Below, one piece after another: positions 2,347 to 60,898 of a stretch of DNA of 64,000 nt; position 1 is the stretch's first letter, and every line of letters begins with the position of its first letter. Below the pieces are notes generated by a model that had not been told where the DNA came from, did no database searches, and saw only the letters and a list, made by a program, of their open reading frames with translations. The translations under genes and the position numbers were made by a program. Source of the stretch: Candidatus Woesearchaeota archaeon (GTDB taxonomy: Archaea > Nanobdellota > Nanobdellia > Woesearchaeales > GW2011-AR4); NCBI GenBank assembly GCA_016185755.1, contig JACPMX010000010.1:3863-67862 (forward strand). The letters are read 5' to 3'.

Positions 2347-3336
2347 CTATCCCTGCAGCCTCTTCATCTCTTCCTCAGGGTTTGGATTTGTATCGACGCT
2401 TTGCACGACAAACTCGAGCCTGTTGAACATGGAATTCTTGTTTGTCCTTCCGTTCAGCTTGACAATAGTCCCGAGCAGGTCGTTCTTCACAGCCTCAAAG
2501 TCGGCAGGATTGTTCTTGAAATTAAGCATCTGCTCCTGGTTCTTGCCAAGCAGTTTTTCAAGCTGGTTCCTGAAAAACACGCACCTTATAGTTTCAGTTC
2601 CGTCATCAAGCACGGAGTTAAGGACATAAGCATAGGCCGGAATCACGTTTCCGTGCTCTGAGCATTCAAACAAGGCTGCAGTCGGTTTTGCCCTTTTTCC
2701 GCATCTCGGGCAGATTTCATAAAACCTTATGTCAAATACCTGCACTATTGTGCCCAGTAATTCAACTTCATTGTCGTTCTCTTTCAGCTCCTTTATCTCC
2801 TTCCTTGTGCCATTCTTGGCTTCGACAGCGACTTCCTTTACAGCCTCTCCTTTCGGATTAATCAATAGTTGCGACTTGTCATTAAGATGAATTTCTTTCC
2901 TTCCGTTATTTTCCCTTACATAGCCGCCGACAACCTTGACAATAAAGCCCTGGCCTAGATTGGCTGCATTATCTGCTTGACTGCCCCACATCACAACCCT
3001 TATCGTTCCTGTTTCATCGCCGACAAGCATGGAAGCGACTTTGCTCAATGAATCTCCCTTCATGAACTCCCTTGTCTCGTAAATCTGCAGAACTTTTCCT
3101 ACAGTCTCCACGTCCCTCATTCCGCTAAGAATGTTCTTTATCTGCAGTTTCCCGCTCAGGGGCTCGAAAATCTTCACTCCAAGCTCGTTCGCAATGATGT
3201 GGGCAGCCCCCTCTTTGCTTATCAGACCTGAAAGCTGCTTCAGCTTCTTCTCTATTCTTTCCTCGATTTCCGATACTGACATCTGCGTCTTCTCGTTTAT
3301 CTTCAGAATTATCTCCTCGTAAGGAATCTTTATCAT
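2347..3336 (-). CDS. rpa: replication protein A (ssDNA-binding, OB folds plus zinc ribbon)
   Basis: 329 aa. OB-fold regions and a C4-type Zn ribbon CPRCGK...CSEHG. Archaeal RPA architecture. Lies next to radA. Confidence 0.8.
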   Translation of the reverse strand: MIKIPYEEIILKINEKTQMSVSEIEERIEKKLKQLSGLISKEGAAHIIANELGVKIFEPLSGKLQIKNILSGMRDVETVGKVLQIYETREFMKGDSLSKVASMLVGDETGTIRVVMWGSQADNAANLGQGFIVKVVGGYVRENNGRKEIHLNDKSQLLINPKGEAVKEVAVEAKNGTRKEIKELKENDNEVELLGTIVQVFDIRFYEICPRCGKRAKPTAALFECSEHGNVIPAYAYVLNSVLDDGTETIRCVFFRNQLEKLLGKNQEQMLNFKNNPADFEAVKNDLLGTIVKLNGRTNKNSMFNRLEFVVQSVDTNPNPEEEMKRLQG

Positions 3337-3425
3337 GGGAGTAGAGGGTGCCGGATTCTTTATAAGTATTTTGGTTTGGTTCGTTGCTCAATGGATTTGG
3401 TAATTTTAAAAATTTTGAAATATAT

Positions 3426-4352
3426 CTATTGTTTTTTAGGGATATAAGCTGCAAACTTCACAACCAAAGGCCTTTCCTTCATCATTCCGTCTGTCTTGTC
3501 ATAAGCCATTATCTTGAAATCCTTCTTTTCAGCGCAAAGCCTGTAAATGCTCTTAGGATTTATGCTGCAGCTTTGGAGCTTGCTTATTTCAACAGGCTTG
3601 TTGCCGGCATCCAAAATAAGGCCGTCCTTTGGATTTTTAAGGTTGTCATTCTCCTGCTTGGCAAAGATTATGGAATTTTGCCCTTTGTAAAGGACGATCT
3701 TTTCCACTGGACCGGGGCCTTCATAGTTGCCGCTTGCGTCATTGAAAAATAGGTTAATATTTGGTGTTCCGTATTGGTTGTAATGGAATACATACCTCGC
3801 TGGTGACCATATTGAAATTCCATTTGTACCTATATCCTGCGACGTCCCGGCATCTGATTCTATCTTTATTTTCTTAAAGCTTGCCTCTTCAAACTTGAGC
3901 TCAAAGTTCTTGTTCAAAAGCCCATAATCCTCTATCTGCCATTTTGTCAATGAGAACTCCTTAGTGCATATGCAATTATTGCTGCCGGAATCAATGCAGT
4001 CCTGGAAGAACTCTGCAAATTCGTAAAGGACTTTTTCAGTCCCTTTGTCGCAGTTCAATGACCATGCAAAAGACTTGTCATTATCATTAATTTCATTCAG
4101 GCACAGGTAAATGTCTTTTTCCTTGGCGCAGCTTGAAATAGAGGCAAATGATTCCTTTATCTTCCTGTAATCATCCAGGCCATAATCAATCTTTGCCCTG
4201 AACGAAGGGTTTATGGAGTAAGTCCCGAGCAGATTGGAATCTTTCTGCCCTGCTGCAACAGCCCCGGTTATTTTATTGGCATCAGTATATACGACAAGCC
4301 CCATCAACAGCGCCGGGATCAGCATCAGCAAAAAAAGGTCTTTTGCTTCCAT
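3426..4352 (-). CDS. secreted hypothetical protein
   Basis: 308 aa. N-terminal hydrophobic signal/anchor LFLLMLIPALLMGLVV. Cys-containing. Last gene of the surface cluster. Confidence 0.5.
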   Translation of the reverse strand: MEAKDLFLLMLIPALLMGLVVYTDANKITGAVAAGQKDSNLLGTYSINPSFRAKIDYGLDDYRKIKESFASISSCAKEKDIYLCLNEINDNDKSFAWSLNCDKGTEKVLYEFAEFFQDCIDSGSNNCICTKEFSLTKWQIEDYGLLNKNFELKFEEASFKKIKIESDAGTSQDIGTNGISIWSPARYVFHYNQYGTPNINLFFNDASGNYEGPGPVEKIVLYKGQNSIIFAKQENDNLKNPKDGLILDAGNKPVEISKLQSCSINPKSIYRLCAEKKDFKIMAYDKTDGMMKERPLVVKFAAYIPKKQ

Positions 4353-30268: not shown

Positions 30269-30829
30269 TTAATGATGAGTAATAGCATTTTTCCAGATGG
30301 CGTCTTCAAGTACTCCTTCCCTAAATAATCTTTCCAGCTCTCCAGGTGGGCAGTCTTTATCTCTCAAAGATATTCGTAATAAATCCCTATCGGGTTTTTT
30401 GTGAACGTACCCTGCACGTTTCATACATTCAATGATCTCCCCTTCTTGATTAATTGTGTAGCCATCAAATATTATAGTTCTTCTAAATATAATATCATAT
30501 TCAACAACCTGCGATAAAACAAAGGATCCTTTTGCGCTAGGAATTGTTGATTCGGCGTGCTCTATTAGTTTAGCTGCATCAGCCTCACTTCTAACTATCG
30601 AAGGATGGTCTGAAACTTTTATTTTGTTGCTATTTTCAGGTTCCAAAAACCTTCTGACATTTTTCGCGGCCGCAAGAAATCTTCTGAGCTCTTCTCCTGA
30701 TGTTGCCTTGGGATCTAATTTACCTTCCCCAACAGACTCAAAATCTGCACACCAGCCTACATACAAACATAGTTCTGTGTATTCCATAAACTTCAGCAGA
30801 AATAGATAGGGTTTTAAAAACCTACCCAA
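30269..30829 (-). CDS. hypothetical protein downstream of PolD large subunit
   Basis: 186 aa with no recognised motif. Overlaps the DP2 stop by 8 nt. An alternative start is 30787. Confidence 0.4.
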   Translation of the reverse strand: MGRFLKPYLFLLKFMEYTELCLYVGWCADFESVGEGKLDPKATSGEELRRFLAAAKNVRRFLEPENSNKIKVSDHPSIVRSEADAAKLIEHAESTIPSAKGSFVLSQVVEYDIIFRRTIIFDGYTINQEGEIIECMKRAGYVHKKPDRDLLRISLRDKDCPPGELERLFREGVLEDAIWKNAITHH

Positions 30830-46176: not shown

Positions 46177-46719
46177 ATGAAGGAAAAAATAACGAAAGAA
46201 ATTGAGCTGCCGGAAAATGCAGCGGCTTCTGTGAATGAAAAATTCATCACCATAAAAGGCCTCAAAGAAGTCAAAAGGGAGTTCAGCCAGCGCAGCGTTT
46301 CAATCAGGATAGAGGGCAGGAAGGTAGTGCTTGAATCGAGAAGCGGGACAAAAGAAGACAAGAAGATAATAGGCTCAATCGCAGCTCACATTAAAAACAT
46401 GATCAATGGCAGCCAGAGGGACCATACTTATACATTGAAGATCTGCTCCGGGCATTTTCCGATGAATGTCAGCGTTGCAGGCAGCAAATTCATAATCAAG
46501 AATTTTCTTGGAGAAAAGGTCCCGAGGACCCTTGATTTGAAGGCAGGCGCAGAAGTCAAAGTTGAGGGGGATATAATCCATGTCACAAGCCCGAACAAGG
46601 AAACAGCCGGCCAGGTAAGCGCAGACATAGAGCAGCTCACAAGAAGGCCGGGCTATGATACAAGGATATTCCAGGATGGCATTTACATAACAAACAAGGA
46701 TGGAAAAGAACTAAAATGA
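46177..46719 (+). CDS. rpl6: ribosomal protein L6
   Basis: uL6 two-domain family. Confidence 0.95.
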   Translation: MKEKITKEIELPENAAASVNEKFITIKGLKEVKREFSQRSVSIRIEGRKVVLESRSGTKEDKKIIGSIAAHIKNMINGSQRDHTYTLKICSGHFPMNVSVAGSKFIIKNFLGEKVPRTLDLKAGAEVKVEGDIIHVTSPNKETAGQVSADIEQLTRRPGYDTRIFQDGIYITNKDGKELK

Positions 46720-47273
46720 AGAGGCTTTTGGAAGTCAGGAAGGAATTGAAAGAGAGAAAGCCGGTTTTTATCAGGCAGGACAATCCCAAGAGGATGAAGC
46801 TCAATTACAAGTGGAGAAAGCCGAAAGGAATTCATTCAAAAATAAGGCACAAGTTCAAAGGAAGAAGAAAAATGCCGTCTCCTGGCTACAAGTCGCCAAG
46901 AAAAGTGAAAGGGCTGCACCATTCCGGGCTGAAAATGATTCATGTTTTTTCCGCCAGCGATGTATCAGGAATAAAAAAGGAAAGCGAGGGGATAATAATG
47001 CCAAAATCAGTCGGCATGAGGAAAAGGCTGGGGATACTGGAAAAGGCAAAAGAGCTCAATATCATGGTTCTCAACATAAATGCTGACGAGCACATGGCAA
47101 AAATAAAAGATTTTGTAAGCTCGAAGAGGAAAGGGCAAAAGGCCGCAAAGAAAGAGGAAGTTAAAGAGCTTAAAGAACAGAAAAAGCAGGAAAAGAACCC
47201 CGAGCTAAGCGACGAGCAGAAAAAAGAGGAAGAGAAGAAAGAAAAGAACAGGATATTGACCAAGAAGGTTTAA
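46716..47273 (+). CDS. rpl32e: ribosomal protein L32e with Lys/Glu-rich C-terminal extension
   Basis: NYKWRKPKGIHSK eL32 signature. About 55 aa of K/E-rich tail. Confidence 0.9.
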   Translation: MKRLLEVRKELKERKPVFIRQDNPKRMKLNYKWRKPKGIHSKIRHKFKGRRKMPSPGYKSPRKVKGLHHSGLKMIHVFSASDVSGIKKESEGIIMPKSVGMRKRLGILEKAKELNIMVLNINADEHMAKIKDFVSSKRKGQKAAKKEEVKELKEQKKQEKNPELSDEQKKEEEKKEKNRILTKKV

Positions 47274-47730: not shown

Positions 47731-48295
47731 AGTTTTCACAGTTCCTTTCAGGAGAAAAAGGCAGGGAAGGACATACTACAAGAAAAGGATAAGGATACTT
47801 TTATCAAATAAGTACCGGTTTGTAGTCAGGAAATCCCTTAAAAATTTCCAGGCATCGGTGATAGAATACAGCCCAAAAGGCGACAAAGTGCTGCTCACGA
47901 TAAACTCAAATGCCCTGGGCAAGATCGGATGGAAAGGAAGCAGCGGGAACCTGCCAAGCGCATATTTGATAGGCCTTCTCGCAGGCAAAAAGGCAATTGA
48001 AAAAGGAGTCAAAGACGCAATACTTGACCTGGGATTCAACAATTCCGTCAAGGGATCCAGGCTGTACGCAGCGCTTGCAGGAGCGATAGATGCAGGATTA
48101 AAAATACCGTTCAATCCGGAGGTCCTTCCGCCAAAGGAAAGGATCGAGGGGGAGCATATAGCAAAATATGCCCAGCAGCTGAAGAATGACAAGCAGAAAT
48201 ACGATGCCCAGTTTTCAGATTATATAAAGAAAGGAGTCAGTCCGGAAAATATAGCAAAACATTTCAATGAGATCAAGGGGAAAATACATGGCTAA
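47717..48295 (+). CDS. rpl18: ribosomal protein L18
   Basis: uL18 (L5e) family. Confidence 0.9.
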   Translation: MKQGKVFTVPFRRKRQGRTYYKKRIRILLSNKYRFVVRKSLKNFQASVIEYSPKGDKVLLTINSNALGKIGWKGSSGNLPSAYLIGLLAGKKAIEKGVKDAILDLGFNNSVKGSRLYAALAGAIDAGLKIPFNPEVLPPKERIEGEHIAKYAQQLKNDKQKYDAQFSDYIKKGVSPENIAKHFNEIKGKIHG

Positions 48296-49169
48296 GAAAA
48301 AAGAAGAAAAGCCCGAGGAAAAAGAAGTAAAAGTCGAGGCAGTAAAGGTAGAAGAGATTCAGGAGGAAGAGGCAATAATAGAAAAGCCGAAAGAAGGACT
48401 TGCCACAGAAATGGGCGAGGTCAAGGAGCTTGAAGAAGAGATTGTAGAAGAAGTCAAAAAGAAAGGCGCTTTCGAAAAAGAATCATGGAAGCCAAAAACT
48501 TCGCTTGGCATCAGGGTAAAAGCCGGCGAGGTCAGGGATATCAATTATGTGCTGGACAGCAGAATAAAGATACTGGAGCCGGAGATTGTCGATGCCCTGC
48601 TGCCGAACCTCACAACAGACTTGCTAATGATCGGCCAGTCAAAGGGAAAATTCGGCGGCGGCCAAAAAAGGATTTTCAAGCAGACGCAGAAAAAAACGCA
48701 GGAAGGGAATAAGCCGAATTTTGCAACATTCGCTGTTACAGGAAATGAAGACGGCTATGTAGGCGTGGGGTACGGCAAATCAAGGGAAACCGTACCTGCA
48801 AGAGAAAAGGCGATAAGGCAGGCAAAGCTCAAAGTCATAAAGATAAGGAGAGGCTGCGGAAACTGGAGATGCGGCTGCGGCGAAGCCCACACAGTCCCAT
48901 TCATGGTAAAGGGAAAAGCAGGCTCTGTTGAAATCACACTCATACCTGCACCTAAAGGGACAGGCCTGATAGTTGAGAAGGAATGCCAGAAGATACTTAA
49001 GCTGGCTGGCATAAAAGACATTTGGTCAAGGACAGAAGGCCAGACAAGAAGCAAGCTTAACCTGTTGTACGCATGCTTCGACGCATTGCAAAAGCTCATG
49101 CAGTTCAAGATGAACAACAAAAGCGCAGGAATGCTTAGCGTTGCAGAAGGCTCGCTGAAGGCAGCATAA
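48288..49169 (+). CDS. rps5: ribosomal protein S5 with Lys/Glu-rich N-terminal extension
   Basis: uS5 dsRBD plus C-terminal domain. About 70 aa of K/E-rich N-terminus. I place the start at MAKKKEEK. Confidence 0.9.
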   Translation: MAKKKEEKPEEKEVKVEAVKVEEIQEEEAIIEKPKEGLATEMGEVKELEEEIVEEVKKKGAFEKESWKPKTSLGIRVKAGEVRDINYVLDSRIKILEPEIVDALLPNLTTDLLMIGQSKGKFGGGQKRIFKQTQKKTQEGNKPNFATFAVTGNEDGYVGVGYGKSRETVPAREKAIRQAKLKVIKIRRGCGNWRCGCGEAHTVPFMVKGKAGSVEITLIPAPKGTGLIVEKECQKILKLAGIKDIWSRTEGQTRSKLNLLYACFDALQKLMQFKMNNKSAGMLSVAEGSLKAA

Positions 49170-49171
49170 AA

Positions 49172-49612
49172 ATGGACAAAAAGGAAAAACAGCTGGCAGC
49201 AGTCAGGGTAAGGGGAATAACAGAAATAAGGGTCAAGGTAGAAGACACTTTAAGAATGCTCAGGCTTTACAGGAAAAATTATTGTGCAGTTATCCCCGGT
49301 AATGAGACTTACCTTGGCATGCTAAAAATGGCGAAAGACTACATCACATGGGGTGAGATTGACGACGAAACTTTCAGGATTTTAGTAGACAAAAGAGGGG
49401 AAGCCTTTAACGGAAAAGAAAAAGACTCCAGGGGAAAGATAAACTACAATGACTTTGTTGTTGTTGGCAATAAAAAAATAAAGAAATATTTCAGGCTAAG
49501 CCCGCCGGTAAAGGGATTTGGAAGGAAAGGAATAAAGCACTCTTTCCAGCAGGGCGGCGCCCTTGGCTACAGGGGAGATAAAATAAACGATTTGATCAGG
49601 AGGATGGTTTAA
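49172..49612 (+). CDS. rpl30: ribosomal protein L30
   Basis: uL30 (L7e) family. LRLYRKNYCAVIPGNETYLGMLK. Confidence 0.9.
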   Translation: MDKKEKQLAAVRVRGITEIRVKVEDTLRMLRLYRKNYCAVIPGNETYLGMLKMAKDYITWGEIDDETFRILVDKRGEAFNGKEKDSRGKINYNDFVVVGNKKIKKYFRLSPPVKGFGRKGIKHSFQQGGALGYRGDKINDLIRRMV

Positions 49613-49933
49613 ATGTTAAATGAATTAGAAGTAGCAGATTTTATCCAAATGGATTATCAGAATAAGGAAAGAAGAATGGGTTACCATGCTTTTGTTAGTG
49701 GGGACGCATCCGCACAAGAAACCGTGCCTCATGCAAGAGCAGCGATTTTAAGAGCATTAAGAATTATATATGAAGTCCCAACAAGCGATGCGGAATTCGC
49801 TGAACTCATGGCTCGGGAAATGTGCAGCCGGCCAGGCTTTCCAACAGATGAGGTTGTGGAAAGGGCATTAGTTTTAGCCAGGCCTAAATTAGAACAATTA
49901 GAAAGTAGGTTAGTAATTAATGTTGAAAAATAA
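49613..49933 (+). CDS. hypothetical 106-aa protein inserted between L30 and L15
   Basis: The ATG directly follows the L30 stop. No similarity to any ribosomal protein. 10 of 11 Leu codons are TTA, unlike the flanking genes. Confidence 0.45.
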   Translation: MLNELEVADFIQMDYQNKERRMGYHAFVSGDASAQETVPHARAAILRALRIIYEVPTSDAEFAELMAREMCSRPGFPTDEVVERALVLARPKLEQLESRLVINVEK

Positions 49934-49960
49934 ATTGATAAAAATTGTAAGTAATCTAAA

Positions 49961-50413
49961 ATGACAGTCAACAAAAGAAAAAAAAATACAAGGCAGCGCG
50001 GCTACAAGACGCACGGCTGGGGCTCCAAGAAGAAGCACAGGGGGCAGGGCCATAGGGGGGGAAGAGGATTGGCCGGCACCGGGAAAAGGTCAGACGCGAA
50101 AAAACCAAGCTACTGGAAAGAAGACTATTTCGGAAAATACGGATTTGTGAGCAAAACACCCGGCATAAAGATAAGCGCAGTCAACATCAGATTCATCGAG
50201 CAGCATTTTAACAAATTCCTTTCAGGCAAGCTGGTATCCCATGAAGGCGGATTTTATATTGTTGAGCTTGAAAAGCTTGGATTCAACAAGCTGTTGGGTG
50301 ATGGAAAAGTTTCCATGAAATTCAGGATAAAAACCCCGTATGCCTCAAAAGCAGCTGTAGAAAAAGTCAAGCAGGCCGGCGGCGAAGTCATAGGCCTGGC
50401 AGAGTCAAAATAA
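49961..50413 (+). CDS. rpl15: ribosomal protein L15
   Basis: uL15 Gly/Arg-rich N-terminus KKKHRGQGHRGGRGLAGTGKR. Confidence 0.95.
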   Translation: MTVNKRKKNTRQRGYKTHGWGSKKKHRGQGHRGGRGLAGTGKRSDAKKPSYWKEDYFGKYGFVSKTPGIKISAVNIRFIEQHFNKFLSGKLVSHEGGFYIVELEKLGFNKLLGDGKVSMKFRIKTPYASKAAVEKVKQAGGEVIGLAESK

Positions 50414-50443: not shown

Positions 50444-51847
50444 ATGTCTGTCTGGAATTCGATAATCTCCAATCTGCCGGAAGTTGAAGGACCTACGCAA
50501 AAAACGCTTTCTTTCAGGGAGAAATTAAAGTGGACTGGGATTGTGCTTGTGATATTCTTCGTGCTCGGGCTTCTGCCCTTGTTCGGCCTTGGGATAAACG
50601 CCCTTGAGAGATTTGAGACCTTGTCTATAATCCTTGGGGCAGAATTCGGGTCGATAATATCGCTTGGAATAGGGCCCATCGTAACGGCATCCATTGTTCT
50701 GCAGCTGCTCAACGGCTCAGGAATATGGAAATTTGACCTGACAAATCCTGATGGCAAAAGGACGTTCCAGGGGACTCAAAAGCTGCTCGCATTGTTTTTC
50801 ATAATTTTTGAGAGCTCAATCTACGTGTTTTTAGGCGGCCTTGCCCCGGCAGAGCAGTTCATCGGGACTGGATTTTATTTCCAGCTGCAGCTGATACTGA
50901 TATTCCAGCTTTTCCTTGGAGGGCTTTTGATATTGTTTTTGGACGAAGTCGTAAGCAAATGGGGTTTCGGCTCGGGAATCAGCCTTTTCATAGCGGCAGG
51001 TGTGAGCAAGAGCATTTTCCTGCAGGCATTCAACTGGATTGTGCCATCCGGCTCGACTTATCCTCCCGGGGCGATACCTGCATTTTTCGTGAGCCTTGTC
51101 AACGGAGATGTTACAACAGCATTGATAATGGCAGCTGCAGTCATTGCAACAATACTTGTTTTTGTCATTGCAGTTTACGCCCAGGCAATGAAGGTTGAAA
51201 TCCCCCTGTCATTTGGAATGGTCAGGGGGCATGGAATAAGGTGGCCATTGTCGTTCATTTATACTTCTAACATTCCGGTCATTTTAGTTGCTGCGCTGAT
51301 TGCTAACTTCCAGCTTTGGGGGAGGCTCCTGCAGAATGCAGGCTGGCCATTGCTCGGGAGCTTCAGCTCTTCATCAGGCCAGCCGGTCTCGGGATTTGTT
51401 TACTGGCTCCAGGGCCCGGACATTGTGAGGAGCATAATACAGCAGCATACACTGCTTATTGGCTTGGCCCCATATTTGCAGGCACTGTTTTACATGTTTT
51501 TCTTCATACTTGGAAGCGTGGTGTTCAGCATATTTTGGGTGCAGACAGCAGGCATGGATTCAAGATCACAGGCCCAGCAGATGATTTCAAGCGGCCTGCA
51601 GATTCCAGGGTTCAGGAAAGATGAAAGGGTTCTGGAAAGGCTTTTGAACAGGTACATCTGGCCATTGACTATAATGGGCGGGATAACCGTGGGATTTCTT
51701 GCCGCGTTTGCAGACCTGACAGGCGCACTGGGAAGCGGAACAGGGATATTGCTTACTGTGATGATTGTTTATAGGCTTTACGAGGACATAGCAAGGCAGC
51801 ACATGATGGACATGAATCCCATGATGAGAAAGTTCATGGGTGGCTAA
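50444..51847 (+). CDS. secY: preprotein translocase SecY
   Basis: 467 aa, 10 TM segments. Position immediately after L15. Confidence 0.95.
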   Translation: MSVWNSIISNLPEVEGPTQKTLSFREKLKWTGIVLVIFFVLGLLPLFGLGINALERFETLSIILGAEFGSIISLGIGPIVTASIVLQLLNGSGIWKFDLTNPDGKRTFQGTQKLLALFFIIFESSIYVFLGGLAPAEQFIGTGFYFQLQLILIFQLFLGGLLILFLDEVVSKWGFGSGISLFIAAGVSKSIFLQAFNWIVPSGSTYPPGAIPAFFVSLVNGDVTTALIMAAAVIATILVFVIAVYAQAMKVEIPLSFGMVRGHGIRWPLSFIYTSNIPVILVAALIANFQLWGRLLQNAGWPLLGSFSSSSGQPVSGFVYWLQGPDIVRSIIQQHTLLIGLAPYLQALFYMFFFILGSVVFSIFWVQTAGMDSRSQAQQMISSGLQIPGFRKDERVLERLLNRYIWPLTIMGGITVGFLAAFADLTGALGSGTGILLTVMIVYRLYEDIARQHMMDMNPMMRKFMGG

Positions 51848-52594
51848 ATGGCATACTACGATTTTCTTAACATTATTTTTGCCCCGCTGCTTAAGCTGCC
51901 AGTATTGTGGGCAGTCATCCTTTTGTCTTTTATCGTTTCCGTGATCATAATTGTAATCACAAAGTACACAACCAATCAGACTTTGATGAAAAAGCTGAAG
52001 GACGACATGAAAGACTACCAAAAGCAGATCAAGGAGCTGAAAGGAAACCCTTCAAAAGCGATGGAAGTGCAAAAAAAGGCGATGGAATTGAACATGAAAT
52101 ACATGATGCATTCTTTGAAGCCTACAATAATAACATTCATCCCGATAATCCTGATATTCGGCTGGATGAGCTCTACCTTCGCATATGAAGGCATAAAGCC
52201 CGGCCAGGAATTTTCAGTCACAGCCATTTTTGAAAAGAATGCAGCGGGCAACGCCGAATTGATAGCTCCTGAAGGAATAACGCTGAATGGTGAAAAAGCC
52301 CAAAAAATCGAGGATAGCCAATCCACATGGAAACTTAAAGGAGAGGAAGGGCTGCACACCCTTGAAATTAGCTATAATGATGAAAAACAGCAGAAGGATG
52401 TCTTGATAACAAATTCTGAAAAATACATTGAGCCAACAAAAAAAACCGAGGGACAAATTAAGTCAATACAGATAGGCTACAAGCCAAAGAAAATACTTAA
52501 CCTGCTTGGATGGAAGCTAGGATGGCTTGGCACTTATATAATATTCTCAATAATATTCACAATGGCATTAAGAAAGCTGTTGAAGGTTTATTGA
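51848..52594 (+). CDS. DUF106 / EMC3-like membrane protein (archaeal YidC/Oxa1-family candidate)
   Basis: 248 aa. N-terminal TM, coiled-coil K/E region, then two C-terminal TM segments. The start overlaps the secY stop. Confidence 0.5.
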   Translation: MAYYDFLNIIFAPLLKLPVLWAVILLSFIVSVIIIVITKYTTNQTLMKKLKDDMKDYQKQIKELKGNPSKAMEVQKKAMELNMKYMMHSLKPTIITFIPIILIFGWMSSTFAYEGIKPGQEFSVTAIFEKNAAGNAELIAPEGITLNGEKAQKIEDSQSTWKLKGEEGLHTLEISYNDEKQQKDVLITNSEKYIEPTKKTEGQIKSIQIGYKPKKILNLLGWKLGWLGTYIIFSIIFTMALRKLLKVY

Positions 52595-52595
52595 T

Positions 52596-53066
52596 TTACT
52601 CCTTAAAGTAGTGCTTAACCACTTCAGAAAATTTTTCTATTATTTTTGAATCAATTTTAGTGTACCTATCAGTCTCTAATGGAAACAATTTCTCTGTTTT
52701 TAGAAAATTCTCTATGTAGTTTATCAAAAAATGAGGCTTTGTGGGTATTACCAATAGGATTCTGGCTTCTTTCCAAAATTCAGCATATTTGTTTAATCTG
52801 CTCTTTTGTATATCGCCGTTGCCTGAATATTTGACTTCAATTAGCTGGACAGACCCACTTGGGCTCACAACAAGAAAATCCGGAATGCTCTTTATTCTTT
52901 CAAGCGTGTCGCTGCCTTGAAGCTCTCTTCTGTTTTGGGATAAATTTTCAAGAACAGCTTCGTACCCAAACCTATAAACCATGTATCCGCTTTTCTTAAA
53001 CATCTCTTCAATTAAAGTCTCAGCAATCCGACCTTTAACTACATTAGAAGCAAAGTCATATCCCAT
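52596..53066 (-). CDS. PD-(D/E)xK nuclease, Hjc-like (possible Holliday junction resolvase)
   Basis: 156 aa. G..AE.LIEEMF..GYMVYR then IPDFLVV...LIEVK, the PD...E.K catalytic motif. Confidence 0.4.
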   Translation of the reverse strand: MGYDFASNVVKGRIAETLIEEMFKKSGYMVYRFGYEAVLENLSQNRRELQGSDTLERIKSIPDFLVVSPSGSVQLIEVKYSGNGDIQKSRLNKYAEFWKEARILLVIPTKPHFLINYIENFLKTEKLFPLETDRYTKIDSKIIEKFSEVVKHYFKE

Positions 53067-54553: not shown

Positions 54554-54859
54554 TTATTTTAATAATTTATCATAATTTTCTTCAATTTTTTTATTTATGC
54601 CTTTTAACTTATCAGTTCTGGATTTGATAGGGTTTTTAAATATATAGCCTAATATACCCAATAAAAGAAAATAAAATGAGGCTGCAAATCCTTTACTTAA
54701 TAGTGTATCTACTGCTATAATAACTGATACACCAATTGCAGCAATCCCAATAGTAATCGTCACTGAATATATCAAAAACTTATCTATTTCAAATTGTAAA
54801 GTATCTTTATCATGTTTAAGTTTCTCAATAATTATTTTTATTTCCTTTGAGTTTTTCAT
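54554..54859 (-). CDS. small membrane protein
   Basis: 101 aa with two TM helices. Overlaps the pheT stop by 4 nt. Confidence 0.4.
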   Translation of the reverse strand: MKNSKEIKIIIEKLKHDKDTLQFEIDKFLIYSVTITIGIAAIGVSVIIAVDTLLSKGFAASFYFLLLGILGYIFKNPIKSRTDKLKGINKKIEENYDKLLK

Positions 54860-60199: not shown

Positions 60200-60898
60200 T
60201 TGGAAAAGATATTTAAACAAATAAACAATCAAATCAATATGTTAGAAGGAATTGAAGCATTGTCAAAAGATGTGTTATATATAATTATTTTTTTAGTTCC
60301 AGGTTATATAGGATTTCAAACAACATTAATGATTTTTTCAGTATTATTCAAACCATTTAAATATCGTTCAAAGAAGATATCTACTTTAGATAAGGCAATA
60401 ATTTCTATTTTATGGAGTGCATTAACTTTTGCAATAATGTTCAATGTTTGGGAAATTGAACAACTTTTTAGTTCAGTAAACATTAAAAACATGGCCCTAA
60501 TGGTAGTCATATCAGTAGGAATCGCAGAATTTATTTCTATAGGTTTCTGGATTTTGTTTTTAGTCATCTTTGGATTTAATACCATATTGGACTTCATAAC
60601 TTATAGTGATAAAACCTTGCCTTTTATCTCGCTTCCAAGGCTAAAACTAATATGGTCTAAGCATTATCAGAATCTTCAAAAAATCCTTTCTGATGATAAC
60701 TATTATGAACTATACTCATCTGCAGCAAACAAAAAAATTATTTCTTTACATCTTATAAATGGGAAAACTTTAAAAGGTATAGTTATAAAAGAAAAGGTCA
60801 TAGATATAACTCAGTTTAAATTTGATGTAGGCAATGAAATATTCATCATCAGTTTAGAAGATGTATACAATATCTCCATCCCTAAAAATCCTCAGTAG
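60200..60898 (+). CDS. membrane protein, AT-rich gene of atypical composition
   Basis: 232 aa with 4 TM segments. Visibly lower GC than its neighbours. Confidence 0.4.
   Translation: MEKIFKQINNQINMLEGIEALSKDVLYIIIFLVPGYIGFQTTLMIFSVLFKPFKYRSKKISTLDKAIISILWSALTFAIMFNVWEIEQLFSSVNIKNMALMVVISVGIAEFISIGFWILFLVIFGFNTILDFITYSDKTLPFISLPRLKLIWSKHYQNLQKILSDDNYYELYSSAANKKIISLHLINGKTLKGIVIKEKVIDITQFKFDVGNEIFIISLEDVYNISIPKNPQ

Follow-up and report, generated by a model that had tools for sequence, protein, structure and literature searches.

A candidate accessory gene family between uL30 and uL15 in the spc ribosomal protein cluster of Woesearchaeota

Replacement-type flexible genomic islands, reportedly described by Rodriguez-Valera and colleagues, are said to consist of variable cassettes which reside at a fixed site between conserved core genes and are exchanged via homologous recombination in the flanks. 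Prokaryotic 'ORFan' genes, reportedly characterized by Daubin and Ochman in 2004, are said to be AT-rich, short, fast-evolving and lineage-restricted. Small acidic helical immunity, antitoxin and anti-defence proteins occur in polymorphic conflict systems. Within archaeal S10-spc clusters, adk and cmk belong to the regular non-ribosomal residents.

Other non-ribosomal residents of these clusters are the RNase P protein RNP1, SUI1 and secY, and the canonical archaeal gene order, DPANN included, is uL18-uS5-uL30-uL15-secY with an empty gap between uL30 and uL15 (PMC10833476). Literature search yielded nothing beyond this canonical order; an intervening gene at uL30/uL15 was not reported. In the window analyzed here (a 64-kb stretch of DNA of Candidatus Woesearchaeota archaeon), the + strand S10-spc cluster comprises S8, L6, L32e, L19e, L18, S5, L30, ORF106, L15, SecY and an EMC3/TMCO1-like insertase, with the product of ORF106 being annotated as hypothetical protein HYX08_04195 (Table 1). 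ORF106 resembles the residents RNP1, SUI1, secY, adk and cmk in being non-ribosomal, embedded in and presumably co-expressed with the ribosomal protein cluster; however, these residents are broadly conserved, evolve slowly and have known functions, whereas ORF106 is patchily distributed, hypervariable and confined to one clade.

Table 1 Features of the uL30/uL15 slot in the window and in related genomes or contigs
Feature	Position	Strand	Remarks
uL30, 146 aa, upstream flank	49172..49612	+	PF00327, E=1.7e-9
GGAGG in uL30 3' end	49599..49603	+	9 nt ahead of ORF106 ATG
ORF106, putative accessory gene, 106 aa	49613..49933	+	ATG start, TAA stop
Central family motif, ORF106 residues 24-42, YHAFVSGDASAQETVPHAR	49682..49738	+	Alignments
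C-terminal family motif, ORF106 residues 77-100, PTDEVVERALVLARPKLEQLESRL	49841..49912	+	Alignments, model
AT-rich spacer before uL15, 27 nt, without Shine-Dalgarno-like motif	49934..49960	+	
uL15, 150 aa, downstream flank	49961..50413	+	PF00828, E=4.3e-11
secY, next cluster gene, flank marker	50444..51847	+	tblastn against relatives
MNT (PF01909) + HEPN (PF05168) toxin-antitoxin pair in slot	L034, insert 3272-4004		
Yip1-domain membrane protein in slot	L042:3366-4004 (=L125, L128)		
MBL-fold protein in slot	L074:3424-3999		
NUDIX protein in slot	L137:1674-2057		
Zinc-ribbon protein in slot, 80 aa, basic tail	L071:3726-3968		
Complete slot-family copies			L010, 126 aa; L014 (=L086), 108 aa; L019, 127 aa; L023, 153 aa; L027, 153 aa; L032, 132 aa; L084, 119 aa; L099, 151 aa; L102, about 143 aa; L160, 144 aa
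Incomplete slot-family copies			L082 and L094, partial (contig ends); L093, frameshifted

The first-pass annotation had correctly placed the start of ORF106 on the nucleotide following the uL30 stop (TAA at 49610-49612), and its premise that archaeal uL30 normally runs straight to uL15 and secY agrees with the canonical order as well as with the relatives, most of which are 'empty' at this site. In these relatives the uL30 stop abuts the uL15 ATG ('...AGGATGGTTTAA/ATGACAGTCAAC', the slash marking the junction), which is preceded by an equivalent A/GGAGGAT. ORF106 and the 27-nt spacer together represent the 348 nt missing from the 'empty' relatives, and the ATG of ORF106 occupies the position of their uL15 ATG. 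The last codons of uL30 (RRMV and stop) encode GGAGG, the putative ribosome-binding site of ORF106. From this layout, ORF106 may take over the position of uL15 together with the GGAGG of the uL30 3' end, and would then share the transcript of the operon and have its translation coupled to that of uL30. Exploitation of ribosomal-operon transcription, as postulated earlier, is thus compatible with the abutting ATG and the GGAGG upstream, expression as such being presumed. Since a Shine-Dalgarno survey of the window cluster revealed mixed usage, the missing motif ahead of uL15 is uninformative when taken alone.

The 8 Logan contigs listed, which stem from different sequencing runs, have the identical L30-ORF106-L15 junction (the ORF106 protein being present in 9 overall), and it is therefore no assembly chimera. 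Codon-position GC of ORF106 decreases from GC1 (0.54) via GC2 (0.38) to GC3 (0.29), as is typical of genuine coding DNA whose background is richer in AT. An antisense ORF of 81 aa (49729..49974) also exists, with the GC gradient and family conservation favouring the + strand. Covariance models of Rfam had no match at E<=1 on either strand between 49000 and 50600, and ARAGORN detected no tRNA genes in the whole 64-kb window (1-64000). Repeat search found no meaningful direct or inverted repeats flanking ORF106, and neither a mobility gene nor an att-like repeat flanks it, its neighbours being uL30 and uL15. Terminal repeats, target duplication and recombinase or transposase of a self-mobile element are all lacking around ORF106.

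Further features of the window cluster are (i) the absence of an adenylate kinase gene after secY (50444-52594), (ii) the start of the EMC3/TMCO1-like (PF01956) membrane-insertase gene one base past the secY stop, (iii) a Glu/Lys-rich N-terminal extension of ~70 aa in S5 as called (48267-49169), with relatives aligning only from residue ~30-70, and (iv) a long Lys/Glu-rich C-terminal tail of L32e as called (46716-47273).

With respect to codon usage, TTA accounts for 9 of the 10 Leu codons of ORF106 (the remaining one is CTC; the first-pass annotation had counted 10 of 11), as compared to 5/103 in S5, L30, L15 and SecY of the window and 182/1700 (10.7 %) in its 68 long ORFs. The binomial probability for at least 9/10 is 1.7e-8, and the bias as such is therefore real. 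GC3 is likewise low (0.29) compared to the window mean of 0.49 (sd 0.08). Comparison against the ribosomal protein genes, the check recommended at the time, thus marks both GC3 and TTA usage of ORF106 as foreign to its neighbours. Four other ORFs of the window also have low GC3, i.e., 30269-30829 (-; 0.30), 54554-54859 (-; 0.17), 60200-60898 (+; 0.25) and 52596-53066 (-; 0.36); they combine a high share of TTA with the lack of a Pfam match and may represent further AT-rich accessory or orphan genes of the same genome.

Direct homology search renders ORF106 an orphan, since a word-indexed search of 5.8 billion proteins as well as an exhaustive phmmer search against 1.84 billion cluster representatives returned only ORF106 itself. 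Its relatives are recovered only by synteny, which calls for caution in annotation. Among the uL15 neighbourhoods gathered from 71 GTDB species genomes and 80 metagenome contigs, the same uL30/uL15 slot harbours collinear + strand ORFs of 106-153 aa (range including ORF106). Thirteen further versions were found, of which 9 are complete, 1 hardly differs from another, 2 are truncated at contig ends and 1 is frameshifted. The latter (L093:294-710) is split, with frame 2 ending in REYLLAQ and a stop and frame 1 running on to the conserved C-terminal motif, and represents either a pseudogene or a sequencing error. Several pairs of members are significantly similar (e.g., L019-L023, 1e-17; L023-L032, 1.6e-8). 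Identity is 20-30 % among members whose L15 proteins share 65-91 %. Two profile searches of the 5.8 billion proteins retrieved slot members only, including one new allele (P0008), and the family looks genuinely small and limited to the uL30/uL15 position. On balance, it probably constitutes an undescribed, very fast-diverging family whose only known location is this junction of the spc cluster. ORF106 shares with ORFans the short length, AT-richness relative to the host, rapid divergence, narrow range and lack of annotated function, but differs from them by a recoverable syntenic family, a confident predicted fold and residence in the ribosomal operon instead of a prophage or island.

Affiliation of ORF106 with this family was assessed by an HMM of 12 members from which ORF106 had been left out. 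ORF106 scored top among 8344 non-member sequences (about 3300 real six-frame ORFs and 5000 shuffles of ORF106) with 14.2 bits, the best shuffle reaching 11.4 bits; E=0.017 for this database is weak in absolute terms, and as a single position-defined test E is about 2e-6. Alignment of ORF106 with the family by hhalign (P=2.1e-4, probability 46 %) covers 76 columns that span the central and C-terminal motifs. Taking these weak scores together with synteny, ORF106 is the most divergent known member of the slot family.

Three collinear motifs are common to the family: (i) N-terminal h-x-x-[DE]-[FM]-x-x-Y, (ii) central Y-x-x-h-K-x-h-h-x-G-x-h-S-A-x-[ED]-h-h-P-x-h-[RK], and (iii) C-terminal [ST]-D-[ED]-x-h-h-x-A-L-x-x-x-[KR]-P-x-L-x-x-L-h-x-x-Y-E, the latter being the strongest. 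D79 is the sole invariant column across all sequences in the alignment, and most members have a Pro directly preceded by a basic residue (R90-P91 in ORF106). The proteins are mildly acidic (pI 4.8-6.2 across ten complete copies measured), as is the small ORF106 protein (pI 5.0). For ORF106 on its own, AlphaFold2 reaches a pLDDT of 49 only; supplying 8 family sequences raises this to 84.2 (pTM 0.75), which also links ORF106, indirectly, to the family. The model comprises five helices, of which the long last one is the most confident part and carries the C-terminal motif. The conserved positions look structural, i.e., an S/T-D-E helix N-cap and a K/R-P kink in the last helix, and most others vary, which suggests a scaffold with rapidly changing surface acting as protein-binding module. 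The structure search proposed earlier gave no match, since Foldseek with the ORF106 model against PDB and BFVD attained a best E of 2.7 at TM about 0.25-0.39.

These findings bear on the question whether ORF106 has a functional product at all. A reading frame that is spurious, in decay or newly born de novo from an expanded, AT-rich spacer between L30 and L15 would agree with the orphan status in direct search, the AT-richness resembling the spacers of some 'empty' relatives, the frameshifted family copy and the dN/dS of up to 0.65 in one pair. However, ORFs of 106-153 aa have been kept in 10 distinct lineages despite the low identity, and the collinear motifs, the coding GC gradient, dN/dS below 1 and the confident five-helix model obtained once family sequences are added all argue against this possibility, rendering it quite improbable. 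ORF106 is accordingly regarded, as judged from these predictions, as a genuine protein-coding gene.

The gene organization at the slot is tight in most members: their starts overlap or abut the uL30 stop (TGATG, TAAATG) and their stops overlap the uL15 ATG or stand 1-3 nt from it (ATGA, TAAAAATG), an arrangement in which uL15 translation would be coupled to the slot-gene stop. Long AT-rich non-coding stretches between slot gene and uL15 are present in L094 (270-488, ~220 nt) and L102 (711-804, ~95 nt) and could hold an internal promoter for L15-secY.

In a neighbour-joining tree of concatenated S5, L30, L15 and SecY, the slot family is found in 13 of 45 dereplicated lineages (~29 %) of one Woesearchaeota clade (L15 at least about 64 % identical to that of the window), with carriers being scattered, and is absent from all outgroup lineages of this tree. 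Some 'empty' clade members possess AT-rich spacers of 26-74 nt at this site, which may be deletion scars. The first-pass annotation had named orthologues of normal codon usage at the same position in all relatives as the observation contrary to its view; instead, orthologues are present in some relatives, and all have atypical usage.

The slot gene has a GC3 of 0.18-0.29 in all ten complete copies measured, compared to 0.24-0.54 in the host flanks (S5, L30, L15, SecY). The contrast found in the window is equally pronounced in the other hosts whose GC3 is close to 0.5 (L019, L023, L027, L032, L099 and L102), while in low-GC hosts such as L010 the slot gene blends in. Since low GC3 is found in every copy whatever the host, the TTA bias is a property of the family rather than a trace of a single recent transfer. 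Either AT-rich members of the clade exchange the cassette among themselves and pass it on, or its third positions are held AT-rich. Low GC3 in every host is not obviously explained by recurrent transfer alone, and a selective or mutational cause is possible.

The view of ORF106 as a horizontally acquired passenger consequently holds in part: foreign codon usage, patchy presence and uncoupled divergence (see below) agree with it, but the gene is not unique to this genome and there is no sign of a distant donor. Specifically, a single recent acquisition by the window genome from a compositionally different, unrelated donor would account for the deviating GC3 and TTA share relative to the host and for the failure of direct searches to find anything but ORF106. 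Against it, homologues in the same slot of relatives place the origin of ORF106 inside the clade, GC3 is low in every complete copy measured, and no relative is found in viral contigs, phage records or plasmids (scans of IMG/VR with ORF106 and P0002; tblastn against phage and plasmid collections). Such a recent import is therefore very improbable.

Divergence of the slot gene relative to its flanks was measured in three pairs of relatives, none of which includes the window genome. In L023/L027, synonymous differences amount to 10/94 in the slot gene versus 207/470 in the flanks (Fisher p=1e-10), corresponding to a dS of 0.115 versus 0.42-0.82, i.e., about 4-7 times lower, and DNA identity is 93-97 % within the slot gene versus 80-90 % outside. 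Judged by these values, the L023/L027 cassette is younger than the genes around it. The opposite applies to L099/L160, where the L15 proteins are 100 % identical (dS 0.01) and the slot gene only 82 %, with synonymous differences of 13/90 versus 1/101 in L15 (p=4e-4; 16 times higher) and non-synonymous ones of 33/342 versus 0/370 (p=1e-11), a contrast that collapse of strain variation in conserved genes of metagenome assemblies could inflate, although such collapse cannot create the L023/L027 pattern. In L099/L160, divergence sets in within the final ~100 nt of L30, differences in the slot gene cluster in its terminal ~90 nt, and from the L15 start onwards the two sequences are abruptly 100 % identical again. 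In the third pair (L019/L023), L15 and SecY are 91 and 96 % identical, the slot proteins 28 %. Slot-gene dN/dS of 0.23-0.65 is below 1, the upper value deriving from one pair, and indicates a protein that is apparently constrained but fast-evolving.

Discordance of both signs cannot be produced by vertical descent at constant rate, but can be produced by allele exchange through the flanks. Related genomes thus appear to swap alleles of the slot family by homologous recombination, with the highly conserved flanking ribosomal protein genes as substrate, which would explain the uncoupled divergence as well as the family's own AT-rich third positions. Roughly 30 % of lineages possess the cassette; in the others it is missing, decayed or replaced by different cargo. 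ORF106 shares with flexible islets the fixed slot, presence/absence and divergent alleles among close relatives, uncoupled divergence (in the relatives) and atypical composition. It differs from flexible islands in being one small gene packed against both neighbours inside the genome's most conserved operon, and its product appears to be cytoplasmic rather than a surface structure. Even for a genomic islet, the location inside the spc ribosomal cluster and the tight packing between two ribosomal protein genes are unusual.

Two other explanations compete with allele exchange at this point. The first is a vertically inherited, lineage-specific ribosome-associated factor, such as an acidic chaperone or assembly helper for uL30/uL15 or an accessory ribosomal protein, that arose once at the clade base, evolves very fast and was lost repeatedly. 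The invariable slot and orientation, overlapping or abutting uL30 and uL15, fit long residence and near-stoichiometric co-expression, and dN/dS below 1, confinement to a single clade and potential deletion scars in some 'empty' relatives are likewise in accord with this explanation. Simple vertical descent, however, does not predict synonymous divergence deviating from the flanks in both directions, nor a protein only 28 % identical where SecY is 96 % identical. Moreover, the gene is dispensable in about 70 % of the clade, one copy is frameshifted, and the acidic product matches no profile of a ribosomal protein or assembly factor. Such a factor is therefore considered unlikely. According to the second, the slot gene is targeted by a diversity-generating retroelement. 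Retroelements of this kind are common among DPANN archaea and could explain local C-terminal hypervariability as observed in L099/L160, their typical targets having a C-type-lectin fold. However, the 64-kb window contains no second copy (template repeat) of ORF106 DNA, the L099/L160 substitutions are mostly ordinary transitions rather than adenine-specific, and the predicted fold is helical and not of the C-type-lectin kind, which makes a retroelement target exceedingly improbable.

The slot also accommodates unrelated cargo in other lineages, a further likeness to flexible islets. Apart from a toxin-antitoxin pair (L034), genes for four other protein types occupy it in more distant Woesearchaeota (Table 1). 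A 46-nt direct repeat, its copies (L034:3254-3299 and 3983-4028) being 98 % identical, encloses the L034 insert and is composed of 19 nt of AT-rich spacer and the first 27 nt of L15. Since the repeat contains the L15 start, the MNT gene begins with the L15 N-terminus MTVNKRKKN. The insert looks like an integration via single crossover or homology at the L15 start. On account of its various contents, the uL30/uL15 junction is regarded as an insertion-permissive slot. A second cluster junction with extra cargo is that of L15 and SecY in L160 (1495-2106) and L161 (1494-1934), where a 203-aa multi-pass membrane ORF without Pfam match is located.

Taken together, ORF106 is probably an accessory, recombination-exchanged cassette gene, presumably expressed from the operon and encoding a small protein-binding module. 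What this reading says on evolution and anatomy, considered by itself, can be held with rather high confidence.

With respect to function, profile searches provide few clues. Pfam and NCBIfam yielded no match for ORF106 and nothing consistent for 12 family members, PHROGs no credible match for ORF106 and none consistent across family members, and PADLOC a best E of 0.01, in single family members only. Sequence-profile searches of the PDB gave marginal matches to helical proteins only. Those to uL18 and uL29m, considered as a ribosomal link, are noise, since their E values are at least 0.057, unstable between two profiles and weaker with ORF106 added. The earlier statement that ORF106 lacks ribosomal-protein motifs is borne out by every sequence and profile test: there is no match to a ribosomal protein profile or chain, and the gene is patchily distributed, fast-evolving and acidic in its product. 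By these tests, ORF106 is unlikely to be a ribosomal protein.

Membership in a known toxin-antitoxin, immunity or defence system is likewise not apparent, as ORF106 is a single gene between two ribosomal protein genes and matches no known family. It resembles proteins of conflict systems in size, acidity, helical bundle, hypervariability on a conserved scaffold and patchy distribution, and a bona fide MNT-HEPN pair fills the same slot in L034. However, this is resemblance only, since an adjacent toxin gene as well as matches in PADLOC, Pfam, PHROGs or structure databases are absent. Conflict-related (immunity- or antitoxin-like) and ribosome-associated roles are both possible. One may speculate, at rather low probability, that the slot family represents a protective factor associated with the translation apparatus, hypervariable and strongly expressed, e.g., an orphan immunity protein or decoy versus ribosome- or translation-targeting toxins. 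If true, such toxins would come from hosts, competitors or viruses of these episymbiotic archaea, the factor would be kept by diversifying, frequency-dependent selection with its alleles shuffled throughout the population by recombination via the conserved flanks, and placement between uL30 and uL15 would allow synthesis in step with ribosomes.

The slot family adds an undescribed protein family with a predicted fold lacking a match in PDB or BFVD, and raises the question why a streamlined symbiont keeps a variable small protein presumably made at the level of ribosomal proteins. Ribosomal protein clusters are treated as most stable and vertically inherited and serve as backbone of genome phylogenies and binning checks. 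In Woesearchaeota, the uL30/uL15 junction repeatedly holds accessory cargo, including one cargo family with a history unlike that of both neighbours. The slot thereby provides a concrete case of recombination tracts whose apparent ends lie within marker genes of DPANN archaea or at their borders.
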